DNA of 64,000 nucleotides, from positions 9,142 through 73,141 of IMG/VR virus record IMGVR_UViG_3300028802_000009; one strand, written 5' to 3'. Positions 11,211 to 60,770 of the stretch are shown here, in pieces; the stretch's first letter is position 1, and each line of letters begins with the position of its first letter. The stretch comes from a virus. Both the position numbers and the translations under genes were made by a program. The notes under the pieces were generated by a model. The model made no database searches. It worked only from the letters and a program-made list of their open reading frames with translations, and was not told the origin of the DNA.

Positions 11211-11258
11211 ATAGCATATTCTCCGTTGAAGGCCTACCAGTGTAATTTCATAAGGAGT

Positions 11259-12458
11259 CTATAACAATCCGTCGTCCGAAAACGCTTGGTAAACTGCGGT
11301 CAAGATCAGCTTGCGGCTGCGGGCGTTGAGGTCTTTCTCGATGTTCGACCACGTGAACGACAAGCGCAACGACGAATCAACCAACTTGGTACCGCTCATG
11401 TGCTCGCTGAGCTTGTGTGCCATTCGCACTGTCTCATCGACGATTTGCTGCATGAACGCGCGTACCTCGTGAGGGTCGTTTACGTAGTCTTTCTCATTCT
11501 TGACCTTGTAGTCCTTGTCATACTCATACTGGAGTGGCTTGCGGAACGCGGTCTCAGCGGCATGGGTCGTCTCGTGAATCAAGACAGTGTACAGACCAAA
11601 GGGAAGACAAGTCTCGGAAGTGCACTCGCTGAGTGGCGTGAAACGATCCGTGACAAACGAAGCCAGGTCCGTGTTGGACCCGTTGGTGGCGAGATATTCG
11701 TTCGGAGACATGGCCCCATTCAACTGAAGCGTCACCTGGACGAAAGCCTCTCCATTTTCAAAGTGCCGTGTCCCAGCCGTCCCCATTAGCACCGGATATG
11801 CCTTACGGGTTGCACGGGCCGAGATCACCAGCACATCGATTCTGAGCTGCTCTGTGCCATCCACTGAATCGACGTAGAATCTCGCTTCCGCCACGGCTGT
11901 ATCACGAGCACCGATCGGCTGGTCCGGATGCGGGTGACGTTCCAACCACCGCTTTACCTGAGGAACAAGCTCGTTTTGGACGACCCGTCTGATCAACGCC
12001 TTGTCTATGCGTATCGGTCGCGTCGCCATTCTGCGGTCATAGCTGTACCCCATCTTGACCTCCTTCAGCTGGATACCAGGGCGCAAGATGATCTCCCGCT
12101 CATGTCCGAACGCCTTGCCGCCAAGAGGCATCTCATCCTGGCCGTAATGCACCAAGGCGTCCTTGGCCCCGATCTCGTACGCCTTGAACAACGCCGGGTC
12201 CAGGTTGGGCTTCCGCGGCGAGACCGATGCGCCCCCCATGTCGCCGCGTGGCTTGTACCGATACACGGTCGCACTAGCGCCGTGCTCGGCGCGAAACGCC
12301 CGCTCCACGTCTGCGTCGTAGGCTGCCTTGGCTTTAGGCGACAAGCCCTCGTACGCCTCTAGCAGAGCGTTCTTGCTGGACCTGGACGGATGGTGGACCC
12401 AGTCCATGGCCGCTGGGTACATGGCATCGATCGCTTCGCCTAGCCACACGCCCAGCAT
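11259..12458 (-). CDS. Two-domain protein: ADP-ribosyltransferase-like N-domain plus HExxH metallopeptidase-like C-domain
   Basis: N-half has VYR...SVSP...HEREIIL (R-S-ExE). C-half has HETTH...YVNDPHEVRA. Strong internal SD (AAGGAGG) before an in-frame ATG at 12053. Confidence 0.55.
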   Translation of the reverse strand: MLGVWLGEAIDAMYPAAMDWVHHPSRSSKNALLEAYEGLSPKAKAAYDADVERAFRAEHGASATVYRYKPRGDMGGASVSPRKPNLDPALFKAYEIGAKDALVHYGQDEMPLGGKAFGHEREIILRPGIQLKEVKMGYSYDRRMATRPIRIDKALIRRVVQNELVPQVKRWLERHPHPDQPIGARDTAVAEARFYVDSVDGTEQLRIDVLVISARATRKAYPVLMGTAGTRHFENGEAFVQVTLQLNGAMSPNEYLATNGSNTDLASFVTDRFTPLSECTSETCLPFGLYTVLIHETTHAAETAFRKPLQYEYDKDYKVKNEKDYVNDPHEVRAFMQQIVDETVRMAHKLSEHMSGTKLVDSSLRLSFTWSNIEKDLNARSRKLILTAVYQAFSDDGLL

Positions 12459-12461
12459 AGG

Positions 12462-13379
12462 TTAGAACCCGATGAACTTCTGCGGGCTCAACACTCCGCG
12501 GCCCACGTAAGGACCGAACGCGCTTCGCAGTCCCATGCCAAACCGGGGCTGCTGCAGACCCTTGATGATGTTGACCGTCGCCTTAGTGTTCTCTAACTGC
12601 TTATCAAACTGGTCTGACAGCGACGAGAACGCGCCCTCATACTTGCTCGACTTCTCCAGATCGAGAGAAACCCCGCCAATTGAGTAGTTAAATTCGTCAA
12701 CTATCCAATTCAATCTTAGCGCTTGGATGGCAAACATCATTGCTCCAGTTAGGAGTAAGGTGCGCCACTCAGGGCGGAACATCACCATCTGATCGACCGT
12801 CTGAAACGGAGTGCGTGGGGGAGCCGATGAAATCAAGTCAAGCGAACGTGCCAAGTACTCCTGCAACTCCACATCTTCCCAGATGTAACCAAAGACCCTA
12901 CTGAACTGTTGTACCGTTTCTTCGTGTGAAGGTGGCCGAAAATGGTAGTTGCGATCTGGATTATTATCCCTAAGCAGGATTCTCAGCCGCCCCATGAGAT
13001 CGTACTCGATCGCCGTCGCATTGATCGCTCCCCCGGTGATCATGCTCGCGCTGCTCGTCGACAAGCCGGCCTTGTCGGTGACCGAGAACTCCTGCACCAC
13101 CTGTTGCTGCGCACCGCCGATGATCTCGCGGAACGTCCAACGGACCCGGTATTCGCCGAGATTGGCGTCAAGCGGGACGATAATGCTCGCAAAATACTCC
13201 CCGACCGAGGGGTTAGCCGGGATACGCATGGGAATGCCGACTAGCACCTCTTGACCCGTCGTGAAGTCATACAGGGCGTACGAGATCTCCGCGGCATTCA
13301 CCGGAGTGTTAGCGGCATTCACCAGATAGATGTTTAGGTCATTCCGGCCAAGCTGCTGCCCTCTGTAGAAGTTAGTCAT
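12462..13379 (-). CDS. Putative head-tail adaptor (neck) protein
   Basis: Ig-like N-domain, then a helical domain LRILLRD...WEDVELQEYL...YSIGGVSLD resembling head-tail connectors. Confidence 0.6.
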   Translation of the reverse strand: MTNFYRGQQLGRNDLNIYLVNAANTPVNAAEISYALYDFTTGQEVLVGIPMRIPANPSVGEYFASIIVPLDANLGEYRVRWTFREIIGGAQQQVVQEFSVTDKAGLSTSSASMITGGAINATAIEYDLMGRLRILLRDNNPDRNYHFRPPSHEETVQQFSRVFGYIWEDVELQEYLARSLDLISSAPPRTPFQTVDQMVMFRPEWRTLLLTGAMMFAIQALRLNWIVDEFNYSIGGVSLDLEKSSKYEGAFSSLSDQFDKQLENTKATVNIIKGLQQPRFGMGLRSAFGPYVGRGVLSPQKFIGF

Positions 13380-13399
13380 GCGTCACAGCCCCTAGTGGT

Positions 13400-13696
13400 T
13401 CAGTCCTTCGATGCGGGCTTTGGCGGCGGCTCAGACTTCTTCTTCTCCTGCTTCTTGTTGTGCTTGGCTCTAGACTCCAAGTCGGCCAACGACTTGTCCG
13501 CGTCTGTCGTGTCCTGCGGGCGAGCGACAGCGTGGGACCTTGCGTCGGCGTTGGGGTGCTCCTGCAGATACTTGTTGAGTGCTTCAGTGCTTGGAAACTT
13601 CTTAGCAAAGCGATACGCGATCGTCTCGGCTATCGACGCTTCCTTCAGAGCGCGCTCAAACTCCTCAACAGCTGATCTCTTCGTGATGTGTCTCAT
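13400..13696 (-). CDS. Small charged protein, possible head-internal protein
   Basis: KRSA, KEAS and IAYRFAK motifs; fits the gap between its neighbours. Confidence 0.6.
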   Translation of the reverse strand: MRHITKRSAVEEFERALKEASIAETIAYRFAKKFPSTEALNKYLQEHPNADARSHAVARPQDTTDADKSLADLESRAKHNKKQEKKKSEPPPKPASKD

Positions 13697-34052: not shown

Positions 34053-35717
34053 TTAGACCTTCCAGGGATCTTGACCCCTGCTGGCAGTGCTTGTCCTAGC
34101 TTCCTTGAACTTGTCCTCGTACTTATCGGTGTTGGCTTTCCATTCCTTGGCAGCGTCCTCGGACATGTTGTCCGTCGGATCGGCGGGCTTACCTTCCTCG
34201 AAACGAGACTCCTTCTCATCCGAAGCGGACTTGAACTTGTCTTCGTACTTATCGGTGTTCGACTTCCATTCCTTGGCGTCTTCTTCGGACATGTTGTCAG
34301 TAGGGTCGGCTGGCTTGCCTTCCTCGAACTTTGACTCCTTTTCATCCGACGCGGAGCGCAGTAAGCCTTTAGCTTCACGGTTGATCAGCCTCTCAGCCTC
34401 TCTTGAGAGAACATCGGCGTTCGCTTCCAACCCATCTACGGATACCGACTTGCGACCCATTATTACCTGAATCGCGCCAAGCCCCTCTTCATCAATCGAG
34501 ACGAGACAGCTGATGTTGTCCCCCGGATCACTCTCCCGCTCAGCAACCTCCAACACTACCCCGCCGCCGAAATCACGACGGATCTCCGTGAGCAAACTCG
34601 GATACAAGCGGTTGAACCTGGCTTCGACCCTTTGCAGGACATCCCTATCGCCCGCAGCAGACTTCTTGAACTTGTCCTCGTACTTATCGGTGTTGGATTT
34701 CCACTTCTTGGCGTCCTCTTCGGACATCCCCTCAGTAGGATCGGCGGGCTTGCCTTCCTCGAACCGAGACTCCTTCTCATCCGATGCAAGCACCAGCGAT
34801 TCGAGCACATCGGGCTTCAGATAGCGCCGCGCAAGACGCACGCCCTTGCTCATGCGAATGGCTAGACCAGCCACATCGTTCGCCCCAACGCTGTCACACA
34901 TGAGCCCGATCTCCGAGACAATGCTCGCCAGCTGATCGAAGGCTTGCCGCATCTGGTTGCCAGCCGCGCCTCGGAGGTAAGCGATACGAGCGGCCCCGCG
35001 GATATACTCAAACCCTAGAGCCATGTTGTATGGCCCGTCGACCCCAAGCTCGCCAACGTCAGCCTTCTTTGGACGCTCCGACGCTTTGACCTCAATGGCA
35101 TCGCCCAGCACTCGCCGGAGAATAGCCGCCACCATCAAACGACTAGGACGGCCCTCATCCTTGCTGAGACCAGCAACCAGTCGGCGCAACGTCACAGCCA
35201 CCTCCTGGTTGGACGACGCGGTACGTACCGAGTCTCCTTCAAGGGATGCGATCAAGCGAGTCAGAGACTCCGTATCGATGTGCCCCGTTTTTTCGATCTC
35301 AGCGGCGACGTGCGTCAACTGTGTGGCAGCTTCTTCAACTCTCATGGGTGACTCCGGTTGTGATGACTTTCTCTTTACTCGACGTACACGGACGTCTTTC
35401 AAGGCGTCCTCCAGCTGTTCGACCTTCTCAGGCCTGAGGTCGTCTTTGATCTCCTCGTAATCCCATCGCGCTACAGCCATCGCCGCCGCATCCAAGGACT
35501 TGCTCACGCGCATCAAAGTGTCCGGGATCGCATGCAGCAGATGACCCGCAACCTCAAAAAACTGGTCACGATGGTCAGACTTCTCGATGAGCGTTGAAGC
35601 CTCCTCGATGTAATCTTTGAGCTGATTGCAGCGAAGCCGAGCATCGCCAATCTCCTCTAGTAGGAACACGGAGATTCCCGAGGCTGTTTTGACTTGCTTC
35701 AAGCACCGATCTTCCAA
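34053..35717 (-). CDS. Putative internal head protein with 42-aa repeats
   Basis: Many KTAS/RTAS/KSA sites, three 42-aa repeats, and a possible internal start (GGAG, ATG 35345). Confidence 0.65.
   Translation of the reverse strand: MEDRCLKQVKTASGISVFLLEEIGDARLRCNQLKDYIEEASTLIEKSDHRDQFFEVAGHLLHAIPDTLMRVSKSLDAAAMAVARWDYEEIKDDLRPEKVEQLEDALKDVRVRRVKRKSSQPESPMRVEEAATQLTHVAAEIEKTGHIDTESLTRLIASLEGDSVRTASSNQEVAVTLRRLVAGLSKDEGRPSRLMVAAILRRVLGDAIEVKASERPKKADVGELGVDGPYNMALGFEYIRGAARIAYLRGAAGNQMRQAFDQLASIVSEIGLMCDSVGANDVAGLAIRMSKGVRLARRYLKPDVLESLVLASDEKESRFEEGKPADPTEGMSEEDAKKWKSNTDKYEDKFKKSAAGDRDVLQRVEARFNRLYPSLLTEIRRDFGGGVVLEVAERESDPGDNISCLVSIDEEGLGAIQVIMGRKSVSVDGLEANADVLSREAERLINREAKGLLRSASDEKESKFEEGKPADPTDNMSEEDAKEWKSNTDKYEDKFKSASDEKESRFEEGKPADPTDNMSEDAAKEWKANTDKYEDKFKEARTSTASRGQDPWKV
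34104..34790. repeat. 126-nt coding repeat: two tandem copies (34104-34355) and one dispersed copy (34665-34790)
   Basis: Encodes ASDEKES(R/K)FEEGKPADPT..MSE..AK.WK.NTDKYEDKFK. Confidence 0.9.
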
Positions 35718-36864: not shown

Positions 36865-37000
36865 TATGATCTCCATCGAAGGGCGCAACGATGCCCACCA
36901 ACAGGAAAACCATAGATAGAACATCTATGTGAAAGCTTCCGATCTGGCCGCTACACGTGACAGGCGGTCTCACTGAGGCACAGAATGCAGCGTTCACCGA

Positions 37001-37064: not shown

Positions 37065-37946
37065 TCAGACGCGAGTGATAACCACACGGGTCAAACCACG
37101 CGGGTTGAATGCACCGATACCGAGATTCTCGAAGCACGAGAAACCGATCGTGCGCGCCTTCGGGTCATCCGCCGAAAGAACGGTGATCTCGGTACGAACC
37201 GGGATACGACCAAACTGCTCAGGCTCGCAGCAAACATATGTGAAGCCGGCAGGTACGAGACGCGACGTGATGATCTGAGCGCCCCAGATAACTGCCTGGA
37301 GACCAGTCTTCAGCAACGTGGCCTGGCTCTCAATGTCCAGGATGTCGCGACCGAACTTACGAATGTCAGCGTAGTCGACCGCGTTCATGTAGATGCGAGC
37401 GACGCGCAAGTCGTGACGCTCGATCTCGGCAAACGCGTCAGCAAGAACTGACGGGCTGATGGGGGCGACGACAGGAACGTCCGCGTTCGTCTGACCAGGG
37501 AGTGTGTCGAAACCAGAGACAGCGATGCTATCCATGATTGCAAACGTCCGCTCGTCTTCCGCGGCCTGAATCTGTGCCTTCGCAAGATCCTGAGCGCGCT
37601 CGATCAGATCGAATCGACGCTCCTTGATCTGCGTGAGTGGGATCTCCGGGTTCGAGGCAATCTCGAACAGCGGGAAGATCACGCGACGTGGCTTCTGGAT
37701 CGCAAGGATGTTCTCGCCCTCTTCGCCGACAACGAACGCCGTAACATCCGGGTCCTTGTCGTAGATCGGGAGAGCACCATCCGGAAGCTGCTCGACCAAG
37801 AAGGTCTTACGACCTACGGCCGAATAGTCGCGGCGCAGACGCAAAGGCTGCACCATCGAAGCAGCGAGCTTCTGGCGGCCAGCAGCGGTCTTGATGTACT
37901 CACTAATGACCTGCTGCTTGAGCTGGTTAGATACTTGGTGTGCCAT
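37065..37946 (-). CDS. Major capsid protein (HK97 fold)
   Basis: 293 aa with HK97-like elements (VGEEG E-loop, backbone helix LIERAQDLAKAQIQAAEDE, IYMN, WGAQIITS, GIGAFNP). Follows protease, scaffold and decoration genes and ends at a strong terminator. Confidence 0.85.
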   Translation of the reverse strand: MAHQVSNQLKQQVISEYIKTAAGRQKLAASMVQPLRLRRDYSAVGRKTFLVEQLPDGALPIYDKDPDVTAFVVGEEGENILAIQKPRRVIFPLFEIASNPEIPLTQIKERRFDLIERAQDLAKAQIQAAEDERTFAIMDSIAVSGFDTLPGQTNADVPVVAPISPSVLADAFAEIERHDLRVARIYMNAVDYADIRKFGRDILDIESQATLLKTGLQAVIWGAQIITSRLVPAGFTYVCCEPEQFGRIPVRTEITVLSADDPKARTIGFSCFENLGIGAFNPRGLTRVVITRV

Positions 37947-40033: not shown

Positions 40034-40042
40034 ATAGAAAGA
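40034..40042 (-). promoter_or_regulatory. Putative late promoter element (TCTTTCTAT) for the scaffold-decoration-capsid operon
   Basis: Intergenic copy of the pyrimidine-RT motif. Confidence 0.45.
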
Positions 40043-40046
40043 AAGT

Positions 40047-41597
40047 TCACGACCGACCTAAGGCGTAGAGTCGACCCTTTTCAAGAAGTTTACTCGCCTC
40101 AGAGCCGGTCACTACCCGGCCAATTACTTGACGGCACGCCGCCAAGTAGGTCTCATCATCTTCATATGGAGCAGTACCGCCCACACTAAGCACTGTCCTA
40201 TAAACTCTTGTTTCACCGGCCATAGACGATTTCTTCGTCAAGACATCTAGAACGCGAGAGACCGCAAGGATCTCACGGCCCGTTAAACCGGCTTGCCTCA
40301 CCCGGCGCCATCCTCCGTTCTTCTGGAGGATGAGCCCTTGCAAGACTCGCTTGGCTTGTGCCTTTCCAACAAACGAAACCACGATCTTAGCGATGCGTCG
40401 CCACTGAGGGTGTTCGAGTGCCGAACGGATCAAGCTCTCATTCTGCTTGTTGTTGTCGACGATCTCGCGAACTTCGTTCGCTTCGCCCTTACTAATCTCT
40501 TGCCGAACATGCTCGATGGCCTTGTCCCGAAGAGCCGTCGACAGATCCTTGACCGCCTTACTGATGGGGTCTTCCTCTGCGCCTCCCGGTGGAGCCGGCG
40601 CGGGTGCGCCCTCCGCGGGAGCTGCCGCAGGATCTTCCGCGGGCGCTTGAGTCTGTTCTGCGGGTGCCTGCTCTGCTGGCGCTTGCTCTGCTGGCGCCTG
40701 GCCCTGACCTTGGGCACGCAAAACGCGAGCGGCTTTAGAAACCCCTCCGGGTATCGGCGATGGAGCGGATTTCGAGAAAGCCATGTGAATCTTGTTCTCA
40801 GCGTGCGCGACTTCTTCAGCCGACAAAACGCTACGCAGAACGGCGCCCTTGAAGGCGGGATTGGCTACCCACGATGCCTCGATGAAGCGCACCGAGGTCG
40901 GATCCGTGTGGTGCCCGCAAAGCTCTGCGACCTTCCGCCCAGTCTTCGATTCATCCAAGAACTGCTGGCCCTTGAAATACCGGATGCACGCGCATAGCTG
41001 GGTTTCGTCTTTGGCGACGTTGCCGCACTTCGTGCAGGTCGTTGAGCTGGTCGAGCACCCCATGCTCAGAGTCCCGAGCTGGCCGGACTTGATCGACCGA
41101 ATCAGGGCCGCGTGCTTTAGGTCGTTGGCAATCAGGATGTCGACGTAAACCGAGTCCCCAATGTCACGAGCCGCCGCGTCAATGATGCGCCCCTGAGATA
41201 GCTCGGGGATCTGCACGTGCTCGATGTACGACTGCGCTCCGACAAACGACTTGAATGACGACATCAGGAGCTTGCGCTCGAATGCGTCGTTGTTGTTGTT
41301 GATGTAGCGCTGCGTTTCGGGCGTGACGTAGTAGTCCTGATATGGCCGGTCGATCTCAAACCCATCGACAAAGTGGCGCCCGACCGGAGCGCTAGCGTTG
41401 TCAACGTCGACAGACGCGACAATCGTCGCGTGGCTAAGCATGTACCTAGCTGGGTCGTACTCCTGTAAGATGACCCGTGCAGTTCTCTTCTGAAAATCTA
41501 GCTCGGGCAAGATCGCCGTACGACGCAATGCATCCCACTCGGCGAACTTGATTCCCGGCTTCTGAAGAGTAGCTTTAGCGAACTTGAGAAATGCCAA
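40047..41597 (-). CDS. Prohead maturation protease with zinc insert and C-terminal extension
   Basis: YIEH (His), LSMGC (Ser), CTKC..CAC insert, FIEASWVANPAF; AEQAP linker repeats. Confidence 0.8.
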   Translation of the reverse strand: MAFLKFAKATLQKPGIKFAEWDALRRTAILPELDFQKRTARVILQEYDPARYMLSHATIVASVDVDNASAPVGRHFVDGFEIDRPYQDYYVTPETQRYINNNNDAFERKLLMSSFKSFVGAQSYIEHVQIPELSQGRIIDAAARDIGDSVYVDILIANDLKHAALIRSIKSGQLGTLSMGCSTSSTTCTKCGNVAKDETQLCACIRYFKGQQFLDESKTGRKVAELCGHHTDPTSVRFIEASWVANPAFKGAVLRSVLSAEEVAHAENKIHMAFSKSAPSPIPGGVSKAARVLRAQGQGQAPAEQAPAEQAPAEQTQAPAEDPAAAPAEGAPAPAPPGGAEEDPISKAVKDLSTALRDKAIEHVRQEISKGEANEVREIVDNNKQNESLIRSALEHPQWRRIAKIVVSFVGKAQAKRVLQGLILQKNGGWRRVRQAGLTGREILAVSRVLDVLTKKSSMAGETRVYRTVLSVGGTAPYEDDETYLAACRQVIGRVVTGSEASKLLEKGRLYALGRS

Positions 41598-41603
41598 GGC
41601 TGT

Positions 41604-42329
41604 TCACCATCCAATCGGCTCGCCCAGCGGACCCAAGATCGCATCCGACTTAAGCAAAAACAGGTCTTTGGGGCATGCGAACAACCGGACACGGGCACCC
41701 TTGTCCATCTTATAGGTTGTGCGACGCATTGAGGTCGCACACTTCGGACAGCGCGGCTTGCCAAGCTCCAACTCACCGGCAGTCACACGATACTGGCGAT
41801 TTTGCGCAACCCAGTATGCCGCGGTCTTCGCAATATGCTGCTGTATCCGCAGATCACGGAGCCTCTCGCCCACCCGATAGAACTTCTGCACTTCGGCCCG
41901 CAGCCCGTTATCATCCACGCCTTGAGCTGCGTATCGATGCCAGGCGTCGTCATACGCAGCTACCTCGGAAGCGCCAGTCGCCCAGCTCTTTGCCAAGCTT
42001 GTGTAGAATCCCCGTGGGAGCTTTGACCCCGCCCATGGGCTAGAGGAAGCCCACTTCTTACGGGCTTTCTCAATGTCGTAACTGCTGTAAGACTGGTCGA
42101 ACTCGGGTGGCAGCCACTGCACAAGGTTGGGATTGACCCGCACGACCTCATCCGGGCTCATGCGCTCGTTGCCATAGGGCCATTGGACATCCAGGCAACC
42201 CAAACCACGATGCACGGCCGTTACGCGCCCGGTGAAAGGCGATAGAGACCAAGCGTCCGCCCCAGGAGCGTACCGTTGCACGGGATCGCCCTGCTTGAAG
42301 TCTTTGACGAGTTTCCAGATGTCGATCAT
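41604..42329 (-). CDS. Hypothetical head protein with SH3-like N-domain and C-terminal zinc ribbon
   Basis: FKQGDPV...GRVTAV...DVQWP; KTAA; CPKC...ACP. Confidence 0.6.
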   Translation of the reverse strand: MIDIWKLVKDFKQGDPVQRYAPGADAWSLSPFTGRVTAVHRGLGCLDVQWPYGNERMSPDEVVRVNPNLVQWLPPEFDQSYSSYDIEKARKKWASSSPWAGSKLPRGFYTSLAKSWATGASEVAAYDDAWHRYAAQGVDDNGLRAEVQKFYRVGERLRDLRIQQHIAKTAAYWVAQNRQYRVTAGELELGKPRCPKCATSMRRTTYKMDKGARVRLFACPKDLFLLKSDAILGPLGEPIGW

Positions 42330-42387
42330 GTTTGCGGTCCTCGTGCGGTCTCACACTCGCTCGGGCCAGCTTCAGGCCCCACACGGG

Positions 42388-45300
42388 TCACTTAGCCAGC
42401 GGGCGACCACTCGTGGACTTGCCGCTGCGAACGCCAGACGAATCGTCGGACTTGTACGCCTTCATATACGGCTCGTCGGCTTCCATCTGAATAGGCTGCT
42501 GAGGATTCTTGAACGTGTCCATGTACTTCTCATCGGAGTCGCGCTGCAACACCTGCGCTAGCTTAGAGCGGCCGATCTCGCTCGCCTGACGGTTCAGCAA
42601 CGATTCCTCACCGTAGGTTGCGGCTTCTAGGTCGTCCGCGATCTTATCGATCGCGTTCACCAGATTCTTAGCCGCCGTAAAGTCCATCCCCCACTTGCCA
42701 TGGTTAGACTGGACAACGGAGGCCATGCGGTCCAGGCGGGCCAAAAGCCCATCAGCCTGGGCGGTCTCAAGTTGAAGTTTGTTGTTCGGCATCGTGTTCC
42801 TCGCAGTTCTTGATCTAACCGTAAGTAGCGTCTCGTTCTCAGACACACCTGCAAGGCGTGCCAAGAGCTTGTTGTAAACAGTCGGATGTATCGCGTGATC
42901 GTAATTCTCATCGCGCAGAGCGAGATCCAGAGCCGCACGCAACTGGGTATCCCGGACAACGCCCTCGACCTTGGTCGACAGCGCTGGCGTGGAGAGCCAT
43001 TCGCGAGCCGCCTTTAGAAGCCGTGTATAGACCGGCTCACCGAGGTCTCTAGCCTGTGGCTGCTGCCACTTTCGATAAGGCTCGAAACCCTCATGGCCCT
43101 TGGGATAGGGGGCGACGCCCCAATAGACAGCAGAACGATCCATCGCACAAGTAGCGGAATAAAAAGAAAAGGCGTGCCCAGTGGTCCGATCCGCGACTCT
43201 TTGGGCGGCACGGCGCGAAGCGAAGTCATCCCAGATTTCCTGCGCGAACCCTGCCTGTTCTTCCGGGTCCTCAACGTCCCCCTTGTAGCGGGGCGGCTTG
43301 CGCGGAGGCTTCGGGGCGGCAATCTTCTGCTTTCTCAGACGTTCGCTACCCGTGGGAGGTGGCTCAGCGTCAACATCACCCGACTCCTTGAGCTTCTTGG
43401 AGTATGCCTTGTAGTCTGACTCGAACTCCTTGCTCGCCTTATGAAGCTGCTCCCGATAGTCCTGGGCGGACTTCTTGTACTTCACCATCTCTTGTTCGTA
43501 GTGCCGATTGTCCTGCTGATCTAAGATGCCCTGGACCGCATGCTGCTTGTCGGGTCGCAGATTCGCCAGATGCTTCATGACGCGATCCCGAAACGTCGTG
43601 TATGTGTCCTGCGAAGTCGCCTCGTCCGGGTATCGTTTTGACCGTTCGCGAAGAAACTCGGTCGCCTTACCGAGGCCCTTGGCAATCGCCTCCGGTGACT
43701 GTCGCTCGGAGATGGGGGCAAACCCCTTCGGGTCCAAGAATCGCTTGCGGGCCTCGCGGTAATCATTCGCCTGACAATAGCTAACAGCCAGCTTTTGGAG
43801 GTCCGGGTCCTTAGTGGACTTCAAAAGCTTCTGCGCTTGTTTATCTGAGAGGTCGGATGGGTCCGACTTGAGCTGCAACCCGCCGTAGAACAGACGCTCT
43901 GCCTCAGCAGTCGCCCGCTTACTGCGGTCCTCTGGGCTCTCTCCAGAACCTGAGAGCGCAAAGTTGGACATGGCGTCAGCCAGCTCCTTTGGCGCCCCCT
44001 TCCTAGCGAAGGCTTTAGCGACCGCACTCTCCGCGGCCAAACTCATAGCAACGGTCTTCACCTGATGCTTACGGTAAGCTTTCGCACCCTCAATCGGATC
44101 GGTGATGCTCTTGAACTCAACATCATTACCGTCCGCGTCCTTCACCATCTTGGGTGCCGGGACATTGTTGGGGTCGGTCGTGTAGAAGGAGGACGCCTCG
44201 TCAACAAGCGACGAGATATCCTCGGGGACGCGAATAGCGGTCACCTTCTCATAGTCTGCGACCATTTCCTGTATCTCGTCCGGGTGGTACCGGGGCTTGT
44301 TGGCGAACAGTATCTTGGCAGCCAGCTCACGCGGGAACGTCTTCATGACGAGCCGATCAGCTGCCTGGCGTTCTGCCTCTGTGACAGGTCTATCTGGCTG
44401 AAACGGGGCGAACTTGGGCGCGTTGGGGTCCTCTGGCGCCGTAGGCTTCGCTTTTGCCGGCCCCTTCTTCGCTTTGGCAACACCGGCCGAGCTGCGGGGT
44501 TTGAGCGATTTCGCGAGGGACTTAAGCCGTTTGGCCGTATCGCGAGATGTGTTAGGTTTGGCAGCCGTGTCTTGGAGTAACTGAATGGCCTGGTCGACAA
44601 GTTCTGGCTTTATCGGGTCACCTCCCTGTAAATAGAACACAAGCTTGCCGACTGCGTTGGAGGCTGAAGCTGGGTTAAACCCCGCGTCCTCCCAGACTTT
44701 GGTGATCTCAGCTTCCAGAGCTTCATCATCCGACTGAGCGGGCTTGGCGGCAGGTGCTCCTTGTGCCGGAGCAGGCTGTTGGGCGGGAGGTGGCTGTTGA
44801 CCAGGGCCTGGCTGTTGAGGTGGCTGTTGACCAGGGGCAGCTTGTGGTGGTGCCCCTTGAGCGGGAGCCTGCGTAGGAGCAGCTTGCGGGACCTCACCGG
44901 GTGTGGCTTCTTCGCCGGGAGCAACGGGCTTTTTCTTGCCCTTTTGTTTCTGCTCCTTGATGCTTTCGCGCGCGCGAGCCTCCACCTCCTCATCAGTCGG
45001 CGGCCCTTTTTTCTGGAGTTCAGCAAGAGCGGCTTTCGTTTCCGCCAGCTCCTTCATGATTTGCTCGCGCTCGGCGGTCGCCTTGAGAGCCTCCTTGATG
45101 GCAGCGCGCTCCTTTTGGGCGCCCTCTGACTTTGGGTCCTCCTTCAGCTCCTCTTTGACCTCCTTCAAGCGGTTCTTGAGCTGGACGCGTTCAGCGGCCG
45201 AGTCGCTCGTGTCTGGAGCTTCATCCGGACCTTTCTTGGGCTTTGGAGCTTGCCCTTGGACGCTCATGACGCGCGCCAAGTCCGAAACCGTCTTGATGCC

Positions 45301-45993
45301 TTCTGGCAGCGCTCTTCCCTGCATAAAGGGTTTAGCGCTGTAGCCAGGATTGTTCTTGGCGAACTGAGAGTTATCCGAGTCGGGTCTCCGGAATGACTTC
45401 AGGAATGCCTCGAACTTGGGATCCTCTTTCGCCAGCTGTCTCAGGGCATCGCGTGCCGCCATGTCCTTTTCGACATTCGGCTGCGCCGCGGGCTCCTTGG
45501 CTTGAGGTTCTTTCTCTTCGCCGGTTGGCTTTGGTACAAGTTTGAGGTTTGGCTTACCGACAGGCTTTGGCTTATCAGCTGGCTTTGGCTCGGCAGTCGG
45601 CTTTGGCTTGCCCTTGAAAGTCTCTTCTTCGGAGTCATCCGCGAGTTCGTATTTGCCAGGCAGCTCTTTAAGCTTCTCCGGGCTGATCTTACCCACCCAT
45701 CCTGTGGCTTTGGATCGGACCTTGACCTTCTTCCCCTGTGGGTCAGTCGCCTTGGCGCCCGGAGCGTTGGCCGCCCAGCGACGCAGGATTCTCGCCGCGG
45801 TCGATCCACCGATATCTTTGAAGTTTTTGGACTGGTCCTTGTCCCTATTGTCTAGGTCAGGGTCGTCATCCGGCTCCACCCGCTCCCTGCGTAGGTCATG
45901 CCGTGCCGGCTTAACCTTGGGGCTCGGGCGAACAAGCCGCTCGACTTCTTCATCCTCCCGCTCTCCGCGGCTCTTCGTAGCTTCGCGATCCAT
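42388..45993 (-). CDS. Large putative internal head (poly)protein with nested in-frame starts at 43143 and 42792
   Basis: 1201 aa, K/E/P/Q-rich; RILRRWAA, RVADR, RTA and RQAS motifs; internal promoter-like tract and internal SD. Confidence 0.7.
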   Translation of the reverse strand: MDREATKSRGEREDEEVERLVRPSPKVKPARHDLRRERVEPDDDPDLDNRDKDQSKNFKDIGGSTAARILRRWAANAPGAKATDPQGKKVKVRSKATGWVGKISPEKLKELPGKYELADDSEEETFKGKPKPTAEPKPADKPKPVGKPNLKLVPKPTGEEKEPQAKEPAAQPNVEKDMAARDALRQLAKEDPKFEAFLKSFRRPDSDNSQFAKNNPGYSAKPFMQGRALPEGIKTVSDLARVMSVQGQAPKPKKGPDEAPDTSDSAAERVQLKNRLKEVKEELKEDPKSEGAQKERAAIKEALKATAEREQIMKELAETKAALAELQKKGPPTDEEVEARARESIKEQKQKGKKKPVAPGEEATPGEVPQAAPTQAPAQGAPPQAAPGQQPPQQPGPGQQPPPAQQPAPAQGAPAAKPAQSDDEALEAEITKVWEDAGFNPASASNAVGKLVFYLQGGDPIKPELVDQAIQLLQDTAAKPNTSRDTAKRLKSLAKSLKPRSSAGVAKAKKGPAKAKPTAPEDPNAPKFAPFQPDRPVTEAERQAADRLVMKTFPRELAAKILFANKPRYHPDEIQEMVADYEKVTAIRVPEDISSLVDEASSFYTTDPNNVPAPKMVKDADGNDVEFKSITDPIEGAKAYRKHQVKTVAMSLAAESAVAKAFARKGAPKELADAMSNFALSGSGESPEDRSKRATAEAERLFYGGLQLKSDPSDLSDKQAQKLLKSTKDPDLQKLAVSYCQANDYREARKRFLDPKGFAPISERQSPEAIAKGLGKATEFLRERSKRYPDEATSQDTYTTFRDRVMKHLANLRPDKQHAVQGILDQQDNRHYEQEMVKYKKSAQDYREQLHKASKEFESDYKAYSKKLKESGDVDAEPPPTGSERLRKQKIAAPKPPRKPPRYKGDVEDPEEQAGFAQEIWDDFASRRAAQRVADRTTGHAFSFYSATCAMDRSAVYWGVAPYPKGHEGFEPYRKWQQPQARDLGEPVYTRLLKAAREWLSTPALSTKVEGVVRDTQLRAALDLALRDENYDHAIHPTVYNKLLARLAGVSENETLLTVRSRTARNTMPNNKLQLETAQADGLLARLDRMASVVQSNHGKWGMDFTAAKNLVNAIDKIADDLEAATYGEESLLNRQASEIGRSKLAQVLQRDSDEKYMDTFKNPQQPIQMEADEPYMKAYKSDDSSGVRSGKSTSGRPLAK
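43159..43167 (-). promoter_or_regulatory. Promoter-like element (TCTTTTTAT) inside the 1201-aa ORF
   Basis: T-rich motif 15 nt before an in-frame ATG (MDRSA), mirroring TCTTTCGAT 17 nt before the ORF's own ATG (MDREA). Confidence 0.5.
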
Positions 45994-46010
45994 TCGATAG
46001 GATCGAATTC

Positions 46011-46019
46011 ATCGAAAGA
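46011..46019 (-). promoter_or_regulatory. Putative late promoter element (TCTTTCGAT)
   Basis: Lies between the portal stop and ATG 45993; no SD present, so possibly leaderless. Confidence 0.4.
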
Positions 46020-47795
46020 TCAACCGAACCGGTCGTCAGGGGGCGCCTCTTGCTCCACCTTCTTGAGACCAAGGGTCTTAATGAGGCGATCGGTTACGTC
46101 AGTCTTGGTCACGAGTTCGTTGGACGCCGCACCGTAGATACCGCGCATCAACTCGTTAAAGAGGGCATCGTTGACGGTGAACAGGTCCCGCTCCAACTTG
46201 ACCCTAGTGTCATCTGGGTCGATATTGAACATCTCCAGGATGAGGGAGATATCGATCGAGCCCTTGTTGTAAAGGTTGAAAAGCGCATCGTACGTATCTT
46301 GAGAGTCGCGCAATGGAAGCCGCGTAAATGAGAGCCGAGGAAACAACACGACCTCTCCGCCCCATTGATTTTTCTCGACAAACCCCTTGCGACGCGCCAC
46401 GGGTTTGAAGATGTGTTTCTCGACGTACTCCTGAAGCATCTCGCGCAGGAACATGTAACGCGTGTTGATCACCTCCAGCTTGAGGCGGTCGCCCGAGTAC
46501 AGTTGCTCACCGGAAAGCAGGCTCTCCGTAACCCCGAGCCCAGCAAAGAGCTGCTTGTCTGTGATCTCGTACTCGCTCGAAAGATCGAGCAAGCGATCCT
46601 TGGACCCCATCTCTTCCCAGTGGACCTCGTAGTTCGCGACGATCGAGTAGTCCGGGTCAACCAGTGACAGGTCGACCTGTTCCCGTAGGTCCATCACGTC
46701 CAACTCAGAAATCTTATCGCCCCAAACGATTCGCTTAGGGGTCATGGCGCGAGACGCAATCTGCGTCTGAGCTTGGCGCAACTTTTCCCGATACATCAAC
46801 GTGCGCAACACTCGGTCGAGGATGCTCTGACCAAGGTCCTCACCCGCACCACGGCGACCGGCGAGATAGTACACGAACGATCCTTCATCCGCGTCTGTCC
46901 CGAGTGGAATGAGCTTGCCCTGCTCCAGGTGGTTGCGAACTTCTTCCGGGATCTCGCGAACCATCTCCTCCGCAAAATCATCGCCGGCCTTCGCCTGCTC
47001 GATGAGCGCCCGATCACGATCCGCAGGGATCAACTCGACCTTCATTTTGTCGGTGAACGAATAAGTGGTGACCTTCACTTGGTCAATCGGCAAGACGATG
47101 ATCCGGTCCCAGCCTTTATAGTGCTGCTGATAATATGCCAGCTCTTGGTCGTCCCGATCGGCGCGCTCGACCCGAGTAACGTCGGGCTCCTCCACCGCTT
47201 CACCGTCCTCGGTGACCTTGGATTTGGTCCCAACCGACTGCACGTCAAACCCGACATCATCAGGGACATCCACCGCCGAATCTTCGGCGAACGAGAACAC
47301 CGACCCGTCCAGCCAGTAGTGATGCACCATCGTCACCAAGCGCTGAAACAGCTTGATGCGATCGCACATCTCCGTGAAGAACCAGAGGATATAGTTGCCG
47401 TAATCGTGCGCGTCCTTGAATCCTTCCGGACAGGTCGTCGGCTTCGGAGTGGCGAGCCGGACCTTGGACAATGGCAGCTCAGTATGCAGGTCGATCGACT
47501 GTCCCACGATGGGGTCAGTATTGTAGAAATGCCGGTACAGCTCGCGCTTTTCGCGCAACGACTGCGGCAACTCCAGGAAGTCTGTCGACAGCTGCGGAGA
47601 AAAGAACTGGCCAGCTGTGGCCAGCGTCGTGTTCATCGAACCGCCGTCATTGGCCTTCTTTAGCCGACGCGCCTCTCGCTCCTTGTCCGTCAGCCCGTTG
47701 ACCGGGTTCTTAGCCACGTACGGTCGGCTCTGGACCTTCGTGGTCTGGGGTAGCGACACCCCACGTCTAACGTTGGTAAAATCTTTTGCCATCAC
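46020..47795 (-). CDS. Portal protein
   Basis: FYNTDPIVGQSIDLHTELPLS, YWLDGSVF, GQSILDRVLRTL, FAGLGVTESLL; located between TerL and the protease. Confidence 0.85.
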   Translation of the reverse strand: MMAKDFTNVRRGVSLPQTTKVQSRPYVAKNPVNGLTDKEREARRLKKANDGGSMNTTLATAGQFFSPQLSTDFLELPQSLREKRELYRHFYNTDPIVGQSIDLHTELPLSKVRLATPKPTTCPEGFKDAHDYGNYILWFFTEMCDRIKLFQRLVTMVHHYWLDGSVFSFAEDSAVDVPDDVGFDVQSVGTKSKVTEDGEAVEEPDVTRVERADRDDQELAYYQQHYKGWDRIIVLPIDQVKVTTYSFTDKMKVELIPADRDRALIEQAKAGDDFAEEMVREIPEEVRNHLEQGKLIPLGTDADEGSFVYYLAGRRGAGEDLGQSILDRVLRTLMYREKLRQAQTQIASRAMTPKRIVWGDKISELDVMDLREQVDLSLVDPDYSIVANYEVHWEEMGSKDRLLDLSSEYEITDKQLFAGLGVTESLLSGEQLYSGDRLKLEVINTRYMFLREMLQEYVEKHIFKPVARRKGFVEKNQWGGEVVLFPRLSFTRLPLRDSQDTYDALFNLYNKGSIDISLILEMFNIDPDDTRVKLERDLFTVNDALFNELMRGIYGAASNELVTKTDVTDRLIKTLGLKKVEQEAPPDDRFG

Positions 47796-50091: not shown

Positions 50092-52167
50092 TCACCGAAC
50101 GCCACGTGGAGCGCGTGGTCGGACCATGCGATATCTCGCCGCTGGATTTCGATCCGAGTGCATCCCGTGGGTACGGGCGCGCATCATTTGGTAGCGCTGC
50201 GCGGTCATCGCCCCCGTATCGCTCAGACGCATGCCGGGCAACGACCCGTAGACATACTTCTGATTGCGCATGCGGTCCGCAGTCAGCCAGACGGCACGGG
50301 TGAAAGCGTCGCTCATATCATCGTGGTAGTCGACACCTGGAGGGGCAGCGACCTCGACGATGTTCTTGCTTTTGGTCTTAGCCTCAAGAGTTAGCAGCTC
50401 CTGAATGAAGGCAGAGTGCTTCTTCCCCGAGATCTCGCCCATGATGAACTTCGGGTAGTCGTACAGCAAGAGCCGCCTGTCGAACATGAGCATCTTGGCG
50501 TTCTGGTAGATGCGCGACCGCAGGTCGGGAGTGAAGAACTCGCATTTGAACTGCGTCAGCCCCTTCTTGAGCAACGCCTGCTCAAGCGGTATTCCGTTCC
50601 AACGGTCAAAGATGCCATCGGTGACGTAGAAGCGCTTGGTCAGCTTGTAGATCCACTCGCTGATCTCGTCGAACTCGAGCCTAGGAGCCTCCGCCAAGGT
50701 TCTGCAATAGTCGGTGGAATAGTCGCTACCAAGGTGCGGATTCGACTTCTTCCAATCCACGCCGGCTTGCCAAACCTCGTGGTAGACCAAGACGACCTTG
50801 CCGCCAATTTCAGAGGTGATGAAGATGGCCGTGCCGTCCCGCATGAGCCCGATATCGATGCCCATCTGGTGCGGATAGCGCGGTATTCCGACGTTCTGAG
50901 GCCGGTGTTCTTCCTCCACGCACGCCATGAGATCTTCTTCACGCTCAATCCAGCCGCGAACTCGGCTGCTGAACTGGGCTCCGTGCTCGGTGAGAAACAC
51001 CGCGGGGTCTTCGTGGTACTTCTGCTTGTAGTAGTCCGGCGAAACCGTCGGGTTGATTTCCCAGGTCGGCGCCTGAATGGCCAGCATGTTCTCCGAGCCG
51101 GGGCCAGCAGACATCGCAAGGTGATAAAGGTCGTAGAACTTGCCGCTCTTGTTCAGCGGGGATGAGATAGCGATAACCCGCGACTCCACCGGGTAGGATG
51201 ACCCGTCGGGCTTGAGCATCGTGAGCCCGGTCTTCGGGTCCTTCGGAGAGTACGTCGCGGTCGACGGCGTCACAGAATCATAGATATCCTTGGCGCTCGA
51301 CTGGCCAGAATCCTGATAGTGCGCCATCTCGTCCATGATCACCACGGCGTTGGAATGACCGCGGAGACCCTTTGCGATACATGACTTGAAGGTTACGCGC
51401 AGTGTAGCCTTGCCATTAAAACTGACGAACTTGCCGTTCTGGTGTCGGGACGTTGGGCCGTAGCGCTCGATGTCATACGGCGTTCTAAACTTGATCTGCG
51501 ACTGCGTGTTGTTGGCGATGTACGGCTTGAAGTAATCGCACTTCGCAAGGTGCGTCGTCACCTCATTGAACAAGATACCCGCTTGGTCCTTATCGGTCGC
51601 AACCGAGATAATCTGAATCAGGTTGCCGTTCGGAAACCCGTAGTAGGATTGCGGGTTACCGAAGTTCAGCAGCCGATAGATCTCGTAGCTGGCGAAAATC
51701 GAGCTTAGCGTGGTCTTTCCACCACGGCGGCCGATACTCAGCACTAGCTGGCGCCGCTCGCGATCTTGCTCGCCGATGTTGCAGCGCCCCTCGTTGTGCA
51801 AGAACGTCAGGTACTCGCGCTCCGTGAAGCGATACATGACCTTCGTGCCGAGCATGTCTTTGATCTCAATGCTCTTCTCCGTTGCGTCCAACGGCATGAA
51901 ATAGTAGAGCTTGACCAAGAAGCGCTGCACCGGGTAGAGCCGCATCCCGAGGCCCCAGCTGGACTCGATGTAGTCCAGGATGTTGAAAATCTTAGGGCGG
52001 AACGGCTTGACCTCGTCAAGCACGAACTCTGTCTCTACCCCCGAGTCTTCATGCTCGGCTTGCGCGGCCGCAGCCGACTTCTGCTCGGACTCTAGCTTAG
52101 CCTGGGACGCGGCCTCTCGAATGAATCGAGCGACACCCTCCCCGGTTCGTTTCTTTTGTGCAGGCAC
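50092..52167 (-). CDS. terL: Terminase large subunit
   Basis: Walker A GRRGGKT, Walker B VIMDE, ISSP coupling motif, nuclease GIDIG...HDDMSDA. Confidence 0.93.
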   Translation of the reverse strand: MPAQKKRTGEGVARFIREAASQAKLESEQKSAAAAQAEHEDSGVETEFVLDEVKPFRPKIFNILDYIESSWGLGMRLYPVQRFLVKLYYFMPLDATEKSIEIKDMLGTKVMYRFTEREYLTFLHNEGRCNIGEQDRERRQLVLSIGRRGGKTTLSSIFASYEIYRLLNFGNPQSYYGFPNGNLIQIISVATDKDQAGILFNEVTTHLAKCDYFKPYIANNTQSQIKFRTPYDIERYGPTSRHQNGKFVSFNGKATLRVTFKSCIAKGLRGHSNAVVIMDEMAHYQDSGQSSAKDIYDSVTPSTATYSPKDPKTGLTMLKPDGSSYPVESRVIAISSPLNKSGKFYDLYHLAMSAGPGSENMLAIQAPTWEINPTVSPDYYKQKYHEDPAVFLTEHGAQFSSRVRGWIEREEDLMACVEEEHRPQNVGIPRYPHQMGIDIGLMRDGTAIFITSEIGGKVVLVYHEVWQAGVDWKKSNPHLGSDYSTDYCRTLAEAPRLEFDEISEWIYKLTKRFYVTDGIFDRWNGIPLEQALLKKGLTQFKCEFFTPDLRSRIYQNAKMLMFDRRLLLYDYPKFIMGEISGKKHSAFIQELLTLEAKTKSKNIVEVAAPPGVDYHDDMSDAFTRAVWLTADRMRNQKYVYGSLPGMRLSDTGAMTAQRYQMMRARTHGMHSDRNPAARYRMVRPRAPRGVR

Positions 52168-59066: not shown

Positions 59067-60770
59067 TTACATGCCCACGTCGGACACTGCTTCGGTGTGC
59101 GGTGGCGCCGCGAAGAACGCCGTCAAGATTGAATCCGGACGAATACTCAGCGCCTTAATCCGTGCGTGGGCGGCCTCTTGATCTTTGTTTGGTTTGATTT
59201 GGCTGAACGGCACGTCACGTAGAGACATCAGCTCTATGTTCAGCAGGACCTGTTTTGAACTCGCCCGAAGACTGGCTGCTTGCGCCTTAGTCAGGCCGGC
59301 TAGATTCGACTGAAAGAGTGTGCGGACCGTTCCATATGGCTTCAATGCCTTGGCTGCGGTCTTCAACCCAAAACCTGGCGCGCCGGGAATGTGGTCGGAC
59401 GTATCGCCACTGATTGCCCGGAGCTGAACCATAGAGCGCGGAGGTACCCCGTACTCGGCCTCAACGCCGGCTGGGTCGTACAATTTCTCTTTGGCGCCCC
59501 CCGCAGCGGGGCACAGCTGATGCGTGAACTCGGTGACCACCTGAAGCAGGTCTCGATCAGAGGTGATGATCAAGTTAGTTGCGCCACTAAGCGGGCCTCG
59601 CACAAGAGCGGCCATCACGTCGTCAGCCTCCTCCTCGGGGTTGAAGGCTTGATGCACACCCATCATTGGCAGAACCTCGCGTAGCCAAGCCCAGCCAAAG
59701 GAGGGCTCTTCGGACCGTGAAATCCTGTTGCCCTTGTACCCCTCGAACATCGCTTTGCGACGTTGCGAGCTACCATCCCAACAGATATAGATAGAACCTG
59801 AAGGAAATCGTTTGCGATACGCAGCCACGCTACGTAAGAAGCCGACGACCCCCCCGGTCCGTCGCCCCTGACTATCAGTCAGCGCACCTAGTCCAGGGGC
59901 CTCCATGCACCGGATGAGAAGTTGCGTCCCGTCGATCACAAGATTCAATGTTGGGCTTTGTTCCATGGGTGTTGCACGTACAGGGTTGAGCCGAGATGAC
60001 AATTCCTCCAGAGTTTGCAGCGCGTGAGACTTCTCTATGAGGAGTGAGAGGTCTAAGACTGAGTAGAATGCGTTGAACCAACGATACAGACACACACTGC
60101 GGTCGACCCATTCCTCCAGGCGGTATACGGCCGCCGCCCGCCCCCTCAAACCGTCCAGCCTATTGTTTGGCCAGTGCGCGACCTTACGAACAGACTCAAT
60201 CCAACTGCCGATGCGCCGAATGCGCTCCCGATACGACGTGTCTGGCGACTTAGACTCAAGGCGAAGAAAGGCCCTCGGCAAGGTAACAAGCCGGTCCGTG
60301 GACCTGAGGTGGATATGCACCACCACGGAGTCTTGCTCTAGTATCTCATCACGGACCGTTGCCTTGATATTCTTGTAGGGGCCGGAGACTATGGTTACGG
60401 CGTCCCCGACCTCGATACCCTGGTCTACCTCAACCGTGATCTGTGCCCGCAGTGTCTCGATTTGCACGTTCGAGACGGTTGCCAGTTTCTTCTCACGCCG
60501 ATTTCCGGATAGTCGATAGAGCGGAGCCTGGACGTACTTAGTTTCCTCCAGCCTCACGTAACAGTGGTCCGGGTGCCTATGGCGAACGAACGCGTAGCCG
60601 TCGACCAGGTATTTGAACTCCCGAATCGGGCCGCGTTGCACCACTGACGCTGGTATGAAGACCTCAGCATCTCGAATATGATGCCGTATCGAGGCTACGA
60701 TAGTATCAGGGTCCTCACCCTCAGCCTTGGTCGTAAGCTCAAGAACCACCCATTGAATGTCACTACTCAT
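59067..60770 (-). CDS. NusG-like (NGN+KOW) domain fused to a 5'-3' exonuclease/flap endonuclease
   Basis: QWVVL...VFIP...GYAFV and VGDAVTIVSGPY (KOW), then LVIDG, WDG, YKGNR, EADD, SDRD, GDTSDHIPG..G.KTA. Confidence 0.85.
   Translation of the reverse strand: MSSDIQWVVLELTTKAEGEDPDTIVASIRHHIRDAEVFIPASVVQRGPIREFKYLVDGYAFVRHRHPDHCYVRLEETKYVQAPLYRLSGNRREKKLATVSNVQIETLRAQITVEVDQGIEVGDAVTIVSGPYKNIKATVRDEILEQDSVVVHIHLRSTDRLVTLPRAFLRLESKSPDTSYRERIRRIGSWIESVRKVAHWPNNRLDGLRGRAAAVYRLEEWVDRSVCLYRWFNAFYSVLDLSLLIEKSHALQTLEELSSRLNPVRATPMEQSPTLNLVIDGTQLLIRCMEAPGLGALTDSQGRRTGGVVGFLRSVAAYRKRFPSGSIYICWDGSSQRRKAMFEGYKGNRISRSEEPSFGWAWLREVLPMMGVHQAFNPEEEADDVMAALVRGPLSGATNLIITSDRDLLQVVTEFTHQLCPAAGGAKEKLYDPAGVEAEYGVPPRSMVQLRAISGDTSDHIPGAPGFGLKTAAKALKPYGTVRTLFQSNLAGLTKAQAASLRASSKQVLLNIELMSLRDVPFSQIKPNKDQEAAHARIKALSIRPDSILTAFFAAPPHTEAVSDVGM

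Follow-up and report, generated by a model that had tools for sequence, protein, structure and literature searches.

A probable nested in-frame gene and a conserved T-rich element within a portal-adjacent head gene of a giant-phage family

Locus and features

The window analysed here is a stretch of 64,000 nucleotides (nt) of virus DNA (IMG/VR record IMGVR_UViG_3300028802_000009, positions 9,142 to 73,141), part of a 73-kb record from a metagenome assembly for which CheckV gives a completeness of 15%. Three soil DNA runs contain the stretch or parts of it, and one of them may be its source; no RNA run was listed as containing it. All long open reading frames (ORFs) of the window lie on the minus strand. 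One of them, with 1201 codons, is a real head-module gene adjoining the portal gene and is the subject of this report. Its last 134 codons, named gene Y below, form a putative gene of their own, nested in the same frame and ending at the same stop codon, and a T-rich tract farther upstream in the coding sequence shows signs of selection as a nucleotide element. The ORF, the tract, the in-frame ATGs at 43143 and 42792 and a GAGGA sequence are all present on the minus strand at the positions given in a preliminary description, which had been made from the letters alone. The features of the ORF, in order of translation, are as follows.

42388..45993, minus strand: the whole ORF, 1201 codons plus stop, a head-module gene adjoining the portal gene.
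46019-46011, minus strand: T-rich motif TCTTTCGAT, directly after the portal stop codon, ending 17 nt before ATG 45993 (MDREA).
45787..45993, minus strand: charged conserved N-terminal motif, amino acids (aa) 1-69, ERLVRPxPKxKPxRxD...KDIGGS; start codon at 45993-45991.
43144..44526, minus strand: middle region as modelled, aa 490-950, a predicted all-alpha domain absent in short-form relatives.
43172-43159, minus strand: T-rich tract CCTTTTCTTTTTAT, encoding AFSFY and ending 15 nt before ATG 43143.
43159..43168, minus strand: conserved nucleotide motif TTCTTTTTAT within the coding sequence; family consensus TTCT-W-C-TTAT.
43141..43143, minus strand: ATG of M951 (MDRSA), a candidate internal start without a Shine-Dalgarno (SD) sequence for an X+Y product of 251 aa.
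42796..43143, minus strand: X domain, aa 951-1066, predicted small and helical (profile match 43137-42811).
42802-42798, minus strand: GAGGA, an SD sequence (-5.9 kcal/mol) 5 nt before ATG 42792, inside the codons of the X-Y linker.
42792, minus strand: ATG of M1068 (MPNNKLQ), in frame with the long ORF.
42388..42792, minus strand: putative nested in-frame co-terminal gene Y, 134 codons; ATG at 42792-42790, stop codon at 42390-42388 common to the long ORF.

For comparison between relatives the protein was divided into N (aa 1-70), X (aa 951-1067) and Y (aa 1068-1201), using iterated profiles over 151 proteins.

Internal start at ATG 42792

From two scans of viral contigs, 88 related loci were obtained, the contigs measuring up to 512 kb. 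At the DNA level, Y is fused to the upstream part in 36 of 62 non-redundant loci and is a separate gene in the other 26, which answers positively the earlier question of whether aa 1068-1201 stand alone in related phages. At the split loci the upstream ORF ends, and the Y gene starts at a methionine homologous to M1068. On a tree of X+Y the smallest number of changes of state is 8, of which no fewer than 2 are required by the well-supported branches taken alone. At locus L044 a stop codon in the short linker separates Y, and its sister L034 is fused; the earlier suggestion that the X-Y junction is a point of gene fusion or fission agrees with both findings. The start methionine is kept in 89 of 89 aligned rows, redundant rows included, and, by eye, in 64 of 64 proteins fitting the motif pattern.

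SD strength was scored as pairing of bases -20 to -3 with a short motif of the 16S tail, on the assumption that the host has a canonical tail; nine loci in which the frames of X and Y differ were left out as ambiguous. Fused Y starts (n=37) have a mean SD energy of -6.15 kcal/mol, and 35 of them reach -5; for split Y starts (n=19) the mean is -6.36 kcal/mol and 15 reach -5. Other in-frame ATGs of the same ORFs (n=529) have a mean of -3.16 kcal/mol, with 119 reaching -5. By the Mann-Whitney test the fused starts differ from these controls with p=2.5e-14, as against p=0.10 for fused versus split starts (here and below, loci were treated as independent after removal of exact duplicates, and relatedness inflates all p-values). 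The two fused exceptions (L003 and L005) have two methionines each, and their GAGG suits the second.

The peptides encoded before Y vary between relatives (ARNT, TEGN, REAN, QETD, RGTV, KEEN and others), while the DNA always holds GAGG, GGAG or AGGA. As the linker peptides vary while the DNA keeps an SD, selection appears to act on a ribosome-binding site (RBS). The small ORF lies in the same frame within the 3' part of a large one and shares its stop codon, and its own start codon and RBS appear to be maintained by selection. Y is therefore very probably translated independently in the fused forms too, as judged from this conservation. This agrees with the co-terminal product from ATG 42792 foreseen in the preliminary description: the ATG and SD are kept in fused relatives, and Y is a stand-alone gene in others. 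The product would begin with MPNNKLQLETAQADGLLAR, with or without the methionine.

At L007 and L076 (322-kb contig), the frame of Y differs from that of X; it stays open over 89 codons upstream, so that Y overlaps the end of the upstream ORF. A frameshift, an overlap or an error could each be the cause.

The T-rich tract and ATG 43143

The tract at 43172-43159 was at first read as merely encoding a conserved peptide motif, [FY]-[ST]-x-Y-x5-M, a reading overturned by codon conservation. The Tyr codon of the motif is TAT in 41 of 41 loci, and the other Tyr codons of the same ORFs are TAT in 282 cases and TAC in 598 (Fisher p=4e-20). A wider motif search gives TAT in 49 of 49 loci; in all 49 the third base of the codon before Tyr is T (background 22%), and the Ser codon is TCT in 43. 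Because the synonymous sites of the Tyr, preceding and Ser codons are conserved, the alignments indicate that the tract is selected at the nucleotide level. An in-frame ATG follows the TAT within 6-33 nt in all 49 motif-bearing loci; the spacing is 18 nt in 31 of them, with G at base +4 in 26 of the 31. GTG and TTG variants occur at the codon homologous to ATG 43143 in two lineages.

The start of the long ORF itself looks unlike an SD-type start. Across N-start contexts from 59 non-redundant loci the mean SD energy is -2.7 kcal/mol and 22% reach -5. A T-rich stretch lies about 20 nt upstream, and the position that fits the internal motif best tends to fall 17-21 nt ahead of the ATG. With a matrix derived from 58 N-start contexts (-30 to +7, ATG masked), the internal sites with 18-nt spacing (n=31) have a mean of +5.9 bits, against -6.4 bits for other in-frame ATGs (n=628; p=9e-20) and -8.3 bits for Y starts (n=65). 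In the reverse direction, a matrix from the internal sites scores N-starts at -14.1, controls at -27.1 (p=1e-14) and Y starts at -26.6. Judged by these scores, the internal tract resembles the ORF's own SD-less start and is distinct from SD-type starts, and the likeness that had been noted by eye in the preliminary description is upheld.

Three further candidates were considered for these two sites. A hairpin before the ORF start, whose stems seemed by eye to covary, was rejected (58 folded contexts, mean z -0.7). Frameshifting or slippage at the T tract was rejected as well, since most relatives have TCTACTTAT or TCTTCTTAT, with no homopolymer run. RNAalifold, applied to 24 sequences round the internal motif, predicted 0 pairs.

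Protein family and architecture

A full HMMER search with residues 420-1201 gave 257 cluster representatives at E<=0.001. The five relatives whose genomes were examined are complete or near-complete, at 380-512 kb with terminal repeats. Among the 151 proteins covered by iterated profiles, 57 have N+X+Y, 64 have N+X without Y, 15 have X+Y (mostly partial) and 15 have other combinations; the N motif was detected in 128. In short-form relatives of about 300-370 aa (311-366 aa) the N motif is joined straight to X+Y, and for that reason the approximately 880 residues between N and X are regarded as a lineage-specific insert. The layout is accordingly a charged N motif, an all-alpha insert of about 880 residues, the helical X, a disordered linker, and Y.

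Within the insert, aa ~365-430 (window 44700-44900, minus strand) form a Pro/Gln/Ala-rich low-complexity segment preceded by a Lys/Glu-rich coiled region; the strongest AT skew of the window, -0.315, is found at 44001-46000. The middle domain (aa 490-950) was modelled by AlphaFold2 as all-alpha, with a predicted local distance difference test score (pLDDT) of 87.7 and a predicted template modelling score (pTM) of 0.79. Foldseek against the PDB returned no fold match to this model at E<0.001 (best E=0.12), and the domain may represent a new fold of a giant-phage head protein.

Database searches with the ORF gave 0 families from Pfam and PHROGs at E<=0.01, so that Phage_Mu_F, the Pfam profile of the Mu F / SPP1 gp7 minor head protein family, is also unmatched. 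Searching 50,697 phage records with tblastn gave no match, the PDB sequence search gave one chance match only (E=0.66), and the ESM Atlas gave no usable match. Rfam over the whole window gave 0 matches, and no paralogues of N, X or Y were found elsewhere in the window.

Two binned genomes also contain members of the family, one on a 5.9-kb scaffold assigned to Parcubacteria and the other on a 127-kb contig assigned to Lysinibacter (L123 and L124). These may be mis-binned phage contigs or may hint at a host; they are too few to claim one.

Predicted structure and role of Y

In the model of X+Y, which is of moderate quality (pLDDT 63), X is small and helical and a disordered linker joins it to Y; Y has three long helices and a disordered acidic tail, in which invariant D-E-x-Y-M (DExYM) motifs occur. 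The X part of the AlphaFold2 model reaches a per-block pLDDT of about 73-88. Foldseek searches of the X+Y model against the PDB and BFVD gave no match below E=0.001.

A homodimer of Y was modelled with a score of 0.49 (three runs: 0.49, 0.55 and 0.47), against 0.00 for the best of three controls. The runs have a contact agreement of at least 96% and a partner pLDDT of at least 58, with interface residues 3-60. The calibration mark for dimers was reached by 20 of 30 solved homodimers versus 1 of 23 solved single chains, a calibration that holds only roughly here because our own alignment was used. The model lends support to a possible pairing between free Y and the corresponding domain of the long form. 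As to function, position, shape and analogy lead us to guess that Y may act as a scaffold.

Neighbouring genes and other sites of the window

The ORF lies in a head module with the following further features.

50092-52167, minus strand: large terminase.
46020-47795, minus strand: portal, 591 codons, immediately before the 1201-codon ORF.
Between the 1201-codon ORF and the next feature, minus strand: ORF of 241 aa.
40047-41597, minus strand: ORF of 516 aa with a prohead-protease PHROG match, two genes downstream of the 1201-codon ORF.
40034-40043, minus strand: TTCTTTCTAT, directly after the stop codon of the protease ORF.
After the protease-match ORF, minus strand: ORFs of 432 aa and 208 aa, other scaffold candidates near Y.
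37065-37946, minus strand: major head protein.
37043-37010, minus strand: terminator-like hairpin of 15 pairs, after the major head gene.
36921-36912, minus strand: TTCTATCTAT, between the terminator-like hairpin and the next gene.
59787-59796, minus strand: fourth TTCTNNYTAT match, inside ORF 59067-60770; coding, again for S-I-Y.

In the window, TCTNYTTATY has 1 match against 0.64 expected, which is not significant, and TTCTNNYTAT has 4 matches against 1.25 expected, all on the gene strand and two of them intergenic. A strict matrix search retrieved little besides the homologous internal site. Just after the stop codon of the protease ORF, 27 of 35 non-redundant loci have a look-alike motif, ATCT-N-T-Y-TATA, which is 32-41 nt upstream of the ATG, itself SD-led, of the 432-aa gene. 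The ATG at 36924 listed for an ORF of 378 aa, close to TTCTATCTAT, is probably not the real start, as relatives begin at MEIIMDQ, 16 codons on.

Depending on the relative, homologues of the 516-aa protease-bearing ORF measure either 494-529 aa or 904-983 aa, a large part having been gained or lost (L003, L007, L009 and L010; locus positions 10200-13400). The portal ORF, with 591 codons here, has 1472 codons in L010 (2027-6445) and 1116 in L065 (1286-4636), where it is fused to extra sequence.

Two more internal sites with an SD and an ATG, mentioned in the preliminary description at 12053 and 35345, do exist. At 12053 (minus strand, ORF 11259-12458) a very strong SD, AAGGAGGT (-12.4 kcal/mol), precedes an in-frame ATG. 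Three relatives were found, and their similarity is confined to residues 135-396, a part that is a stand-alone ORF in L090 and belongs to an ORF of 1162 codons in L091; this may be a second case of a fused or nested gene. At 35345 (minus strand, ORF 34053-35717) an in-frame ATG follows GGAG (-6.1 kcal/mol). A pattern search for MRVEEA, the peptide starting there, found none in relatives L093 and L095-L097; L093, which is 70% identical, has a frame of 467 codons. A nested gene at 35345 has no support so far.

Proposed explanation and alternatives

The explanation favoured overall, to which we give a probability of about 0.7, combines a nested co-terminal Y with a separate T-rich element that is likely a second start. 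Y would serve twice, as C-terminal domain of the long protein and as a gene nested in the same frame. Ribosomes would start at ATG 42792 on the GAGGA of the linker and produce a free Y of 134 residues, which ends at the stop codon of the long form. The helical hairpin of Y is predicted to dimerise, and free Y may in this way bind its counterpart domain in the long protein; by analogy with lambda C/Nu3, herpesvirus UL26/UL26.5 and SpaO long/short, this pairing would link a large protein of low abundance to a small and abundant one that takes part in assembly. Provided that yield follows SD strength, more free Y than long form is to be expected, the start of Y having a good SD and that of the long ORF none. 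The T-rich tract would be a separate element that copies the architecture of the ORF's own start and most likely marks a second start for X+Y (251 aa, beginning with MDRSAVYWGVAPYPK, with or without the methionine); it may act on transcription or on translation. Taken by itself, a second product from ATG 43143 is given a little under even odds on the sequence conservation seen.

A more specific proposal is held tentatively, and with some doubt. It takes TTCT-NN-YTAT, about 15 nt and ATG-G as an SD-less start module not described before, present at the ORF's own start and duplicated within its coding sequence, so that, with the SD-led start of Y added, three nested head proteins with a common C-terminus, of 1201, 251 and 134 aa, would be made. 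If true, phages would have an equivalent of the herpesvirus assembly genes with their multiple nesting, and the module would be a novel type of initiation signal, of transcription or translation, confined to a few head genes.

Several findings weigh against the favoured explanation. The signals at both internal ATGs are known from sequence conservation, relatedness inflates the p-values as stated above, and the conserved methionine of Y could in principle be a structural residue. ATG 43143 is preceded by no SD (energies near 0). The site never follows a stop codon, with at least 83 codons open upstream in 62 of 62 non-redundant loci, and aa 951-1067 (X) form a gene on their own in none of these 62. 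The third product proposed in the preliminary description thus keeps its conserved nucleotide tract with the likeness to the ORF's own start, and loses both the SD and any case in which the site begins a separate gene. Stand-alone X+Y genes that seemed to start at or near M951 (P0037, P0085, P0058 and P0063) turned out to be truncated gene calls on contigs of 995-4627 nt; P0058 and P0153 were rejected as separate genes, being identical to the end of the 1361-aa P0152. Eleven of 60 aligned rows fall outside the motif pattern: six, from the deepest clade, have CTTCTAAT, two have TTCTAYTTGT, and the rest are offset or without a nearby Met. L007 has no in-frame ATG after the motif, and L026 and L057 carry ACG at a codon that is ATG or GTG in sister clades, an ATG coming four codons later. 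The idea that the internal genes have their own promoter found no support: no sigma-70-like site was found in 42300-46200, and in the five relative genomes TCTNYTTATA occurs 25 times versus 25 for its reversed control and TTCTNNYTAT 119 times versus 132, so the motif was rejected as a general promoter class. The Y dimer is a prediction of modest confidence (pLDDT about 58). No match to Y as a scaffold was found in Pfam, PHROG, PDB sequences, Foldseek or the Atlas, and among 44 single Y sequences searched against PHROGs 2 weakly match the 'head maturation protease' PHROG, with otherwise scattered weak matches.

The alternative that survives best, a real possibility if a lesser one, concerns the T-rich tract only. 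It holds that 43168-43159 is functional without being a start signal, serving instead to bind a regulator of a few head genes, to direct the processing or stability of RNA, or to make decoding pause where two domains meet, with M951 an ordinary residue of the peptide motif S-x-Y-x5-M. It would account for a site that lacks an SD, never lies at a gene boundary and has a motif not enriched genome-wide; the peptide motif is itself conserved, and similar motifs 32-41 nt before the ATG of another gene indicate that the distance to a start is not fixed. It fits poorly with a likeness to the own-start context that reaches the bases flanking the ATG, with an in-frame ATG 6-33 nt after the TAT in every one of the 49 loci, and with GTG and TTG at the homologous codon in two lineages; nor does any RNA structure account for the motif.

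For ATG 42792 the simplest competing account is that only the full-length protein is made, the ATG and SD being relics of fusion, the methionine an ordinary residue and the purine-rich codons there by chance. The variation between split and fused loci shows that fusion occurred, and relic signals are expected just after such an event. A neutral relic in a freely varying linker would decay, however, and the SD is held at stand-alone strength in 35 of 37 fused loci, across long-branched clades and more than 10 linker peptides. We consider this account unlikely.

Equally improbable is the reading as a polyprotein, according to which a prohead protease cuts R-x-A sites at the junctions and frees X and Y without internal initiation. 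Large head proteins of giant phages are commonly processed, an ORF matching a prohead protease lies two genes downstream, and the X-Y linker is predicted to be disordered; such cleavage would also be compatible with internal starts. The R-x-A sites put forward in the preliminary description are, however, conserved at neither junction, and the residues before the Y start vary freely. Cleavage leaves the retention of the SD and the conservation of synonymous sites unexplained, and split relatives have Y without any cleavage.

That the fusion is an assembly or sequencing error removing an X-Y stop codon in this metagenome-assembled record is hardly credible: one point change does switch the state (L044 vs L034), but the same fused frame is found in 36 non-redundant loci from many samples, including L011 (90% identical over X+Y) and L012 (80%).

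Significance

Nearly all knowledge of giant phages of 380-512 kb comes from metagenomes, and the assembly of their heads has yet to be charted. With the parts described here, a large conserved portal-adjacent family gains a testable anatomy. Automatic annotation would undercount its products, a small and probably abundant protein being hidden in the end of a long ORF. The device of a common C-terminal domain, as in lambda and the herpesviruses, seems to have re-arisen with unrelated proteins, and its evolution can be traced here because both fused and split states are seen. The T-rich element, which overrides codon choice, is a precise target for the study of SD-less starts of expression in these phages. 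Should only the nesting of Y hold, the case would add one more example, sound but not surprising, to an arrangement already known.

Comparison with known systems

Mu F and SPP1 gp7 are portal-adjacent minor head proteins. They resemble the 1201-codon ORF in that the gene lies right after the portal and has a conserved core, variable size and large lineage-specific additions. The present protein differs from them in having no Pfam or PHROG match and a well-modelled middle domain without a PDB fold match.

Bacterial pairs of isoforms include those of CheA, ClpB and IF2. A further pair is SpaO, whose short form comprises the last 101 residues of the long one (bioRxiv 10.1101/2025.05.15.654217). 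Here too an internal in-frame start would give a short C-terminal isoform, and the modelled Y-Y dimer would fit the same logic. SpaO differs in belonging to a secretion machine (the type III sorting platform) and not to a virus head; there is no homology, and binding of the short to the long form is predicted in our case.

Among the literature matches listed, as far as their available text extends, there is no case of internal starts of this kind in jumbo phages. Mu I/Z is a second nested case of protease and scaffold besides lambda C/Nu3. The overlap of lambda C and Nu3 was reportedly described by Shaw and Murialdo in 1980, a paper among the references of PMC8508860; PMC3185693 makes no mention of Nu3. 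Like lambda C/Nu3, the present locus has a small protein encoded in frame in the 3' part of a portal-adjacent head gene, with a common stop codon, its own putative RBS and a common C-terminal domain. No likeness of sequence or fold to them was seen: no homology to Nu3, gpZ or known scaffold families was found in Pfam and PHROG (E<=0.01) or in PDB sequences. The long product here has no protease domain, the protease match being in a separate ORF; about 4 of 10 relatives have the small gene as a separate one, and a scaffold role for Y is suggested by analogy. In lambda, portal B, protease C and scaffold Nu3 together make up the initiator of head assembly (PMC3224144).

The herpesvirus genes UL26/UL26.5 differ from the present case in that hosts, signals and proteins are unrelated and the long product here is no protease. 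Their short forms arise from internal promoters as separate transcripts; the signal at the Y start here is an RBS. In cytomegalovirus, UL80 holds several nested ORFs. In the UL26/UL26.5 pair the short form is produced in excess, full-length transcripts lying about 10-fold below the scaffold transcript (PMC11565193). UL26 and UL26.5 share with the present locus nested, in-frame, 3'-co-terminal genes of head assembly in which the signal for the short form lies inside the long ORF, and they are the closest parallel to the 'up to three co-terminal products' envisaged in the preliminary description.

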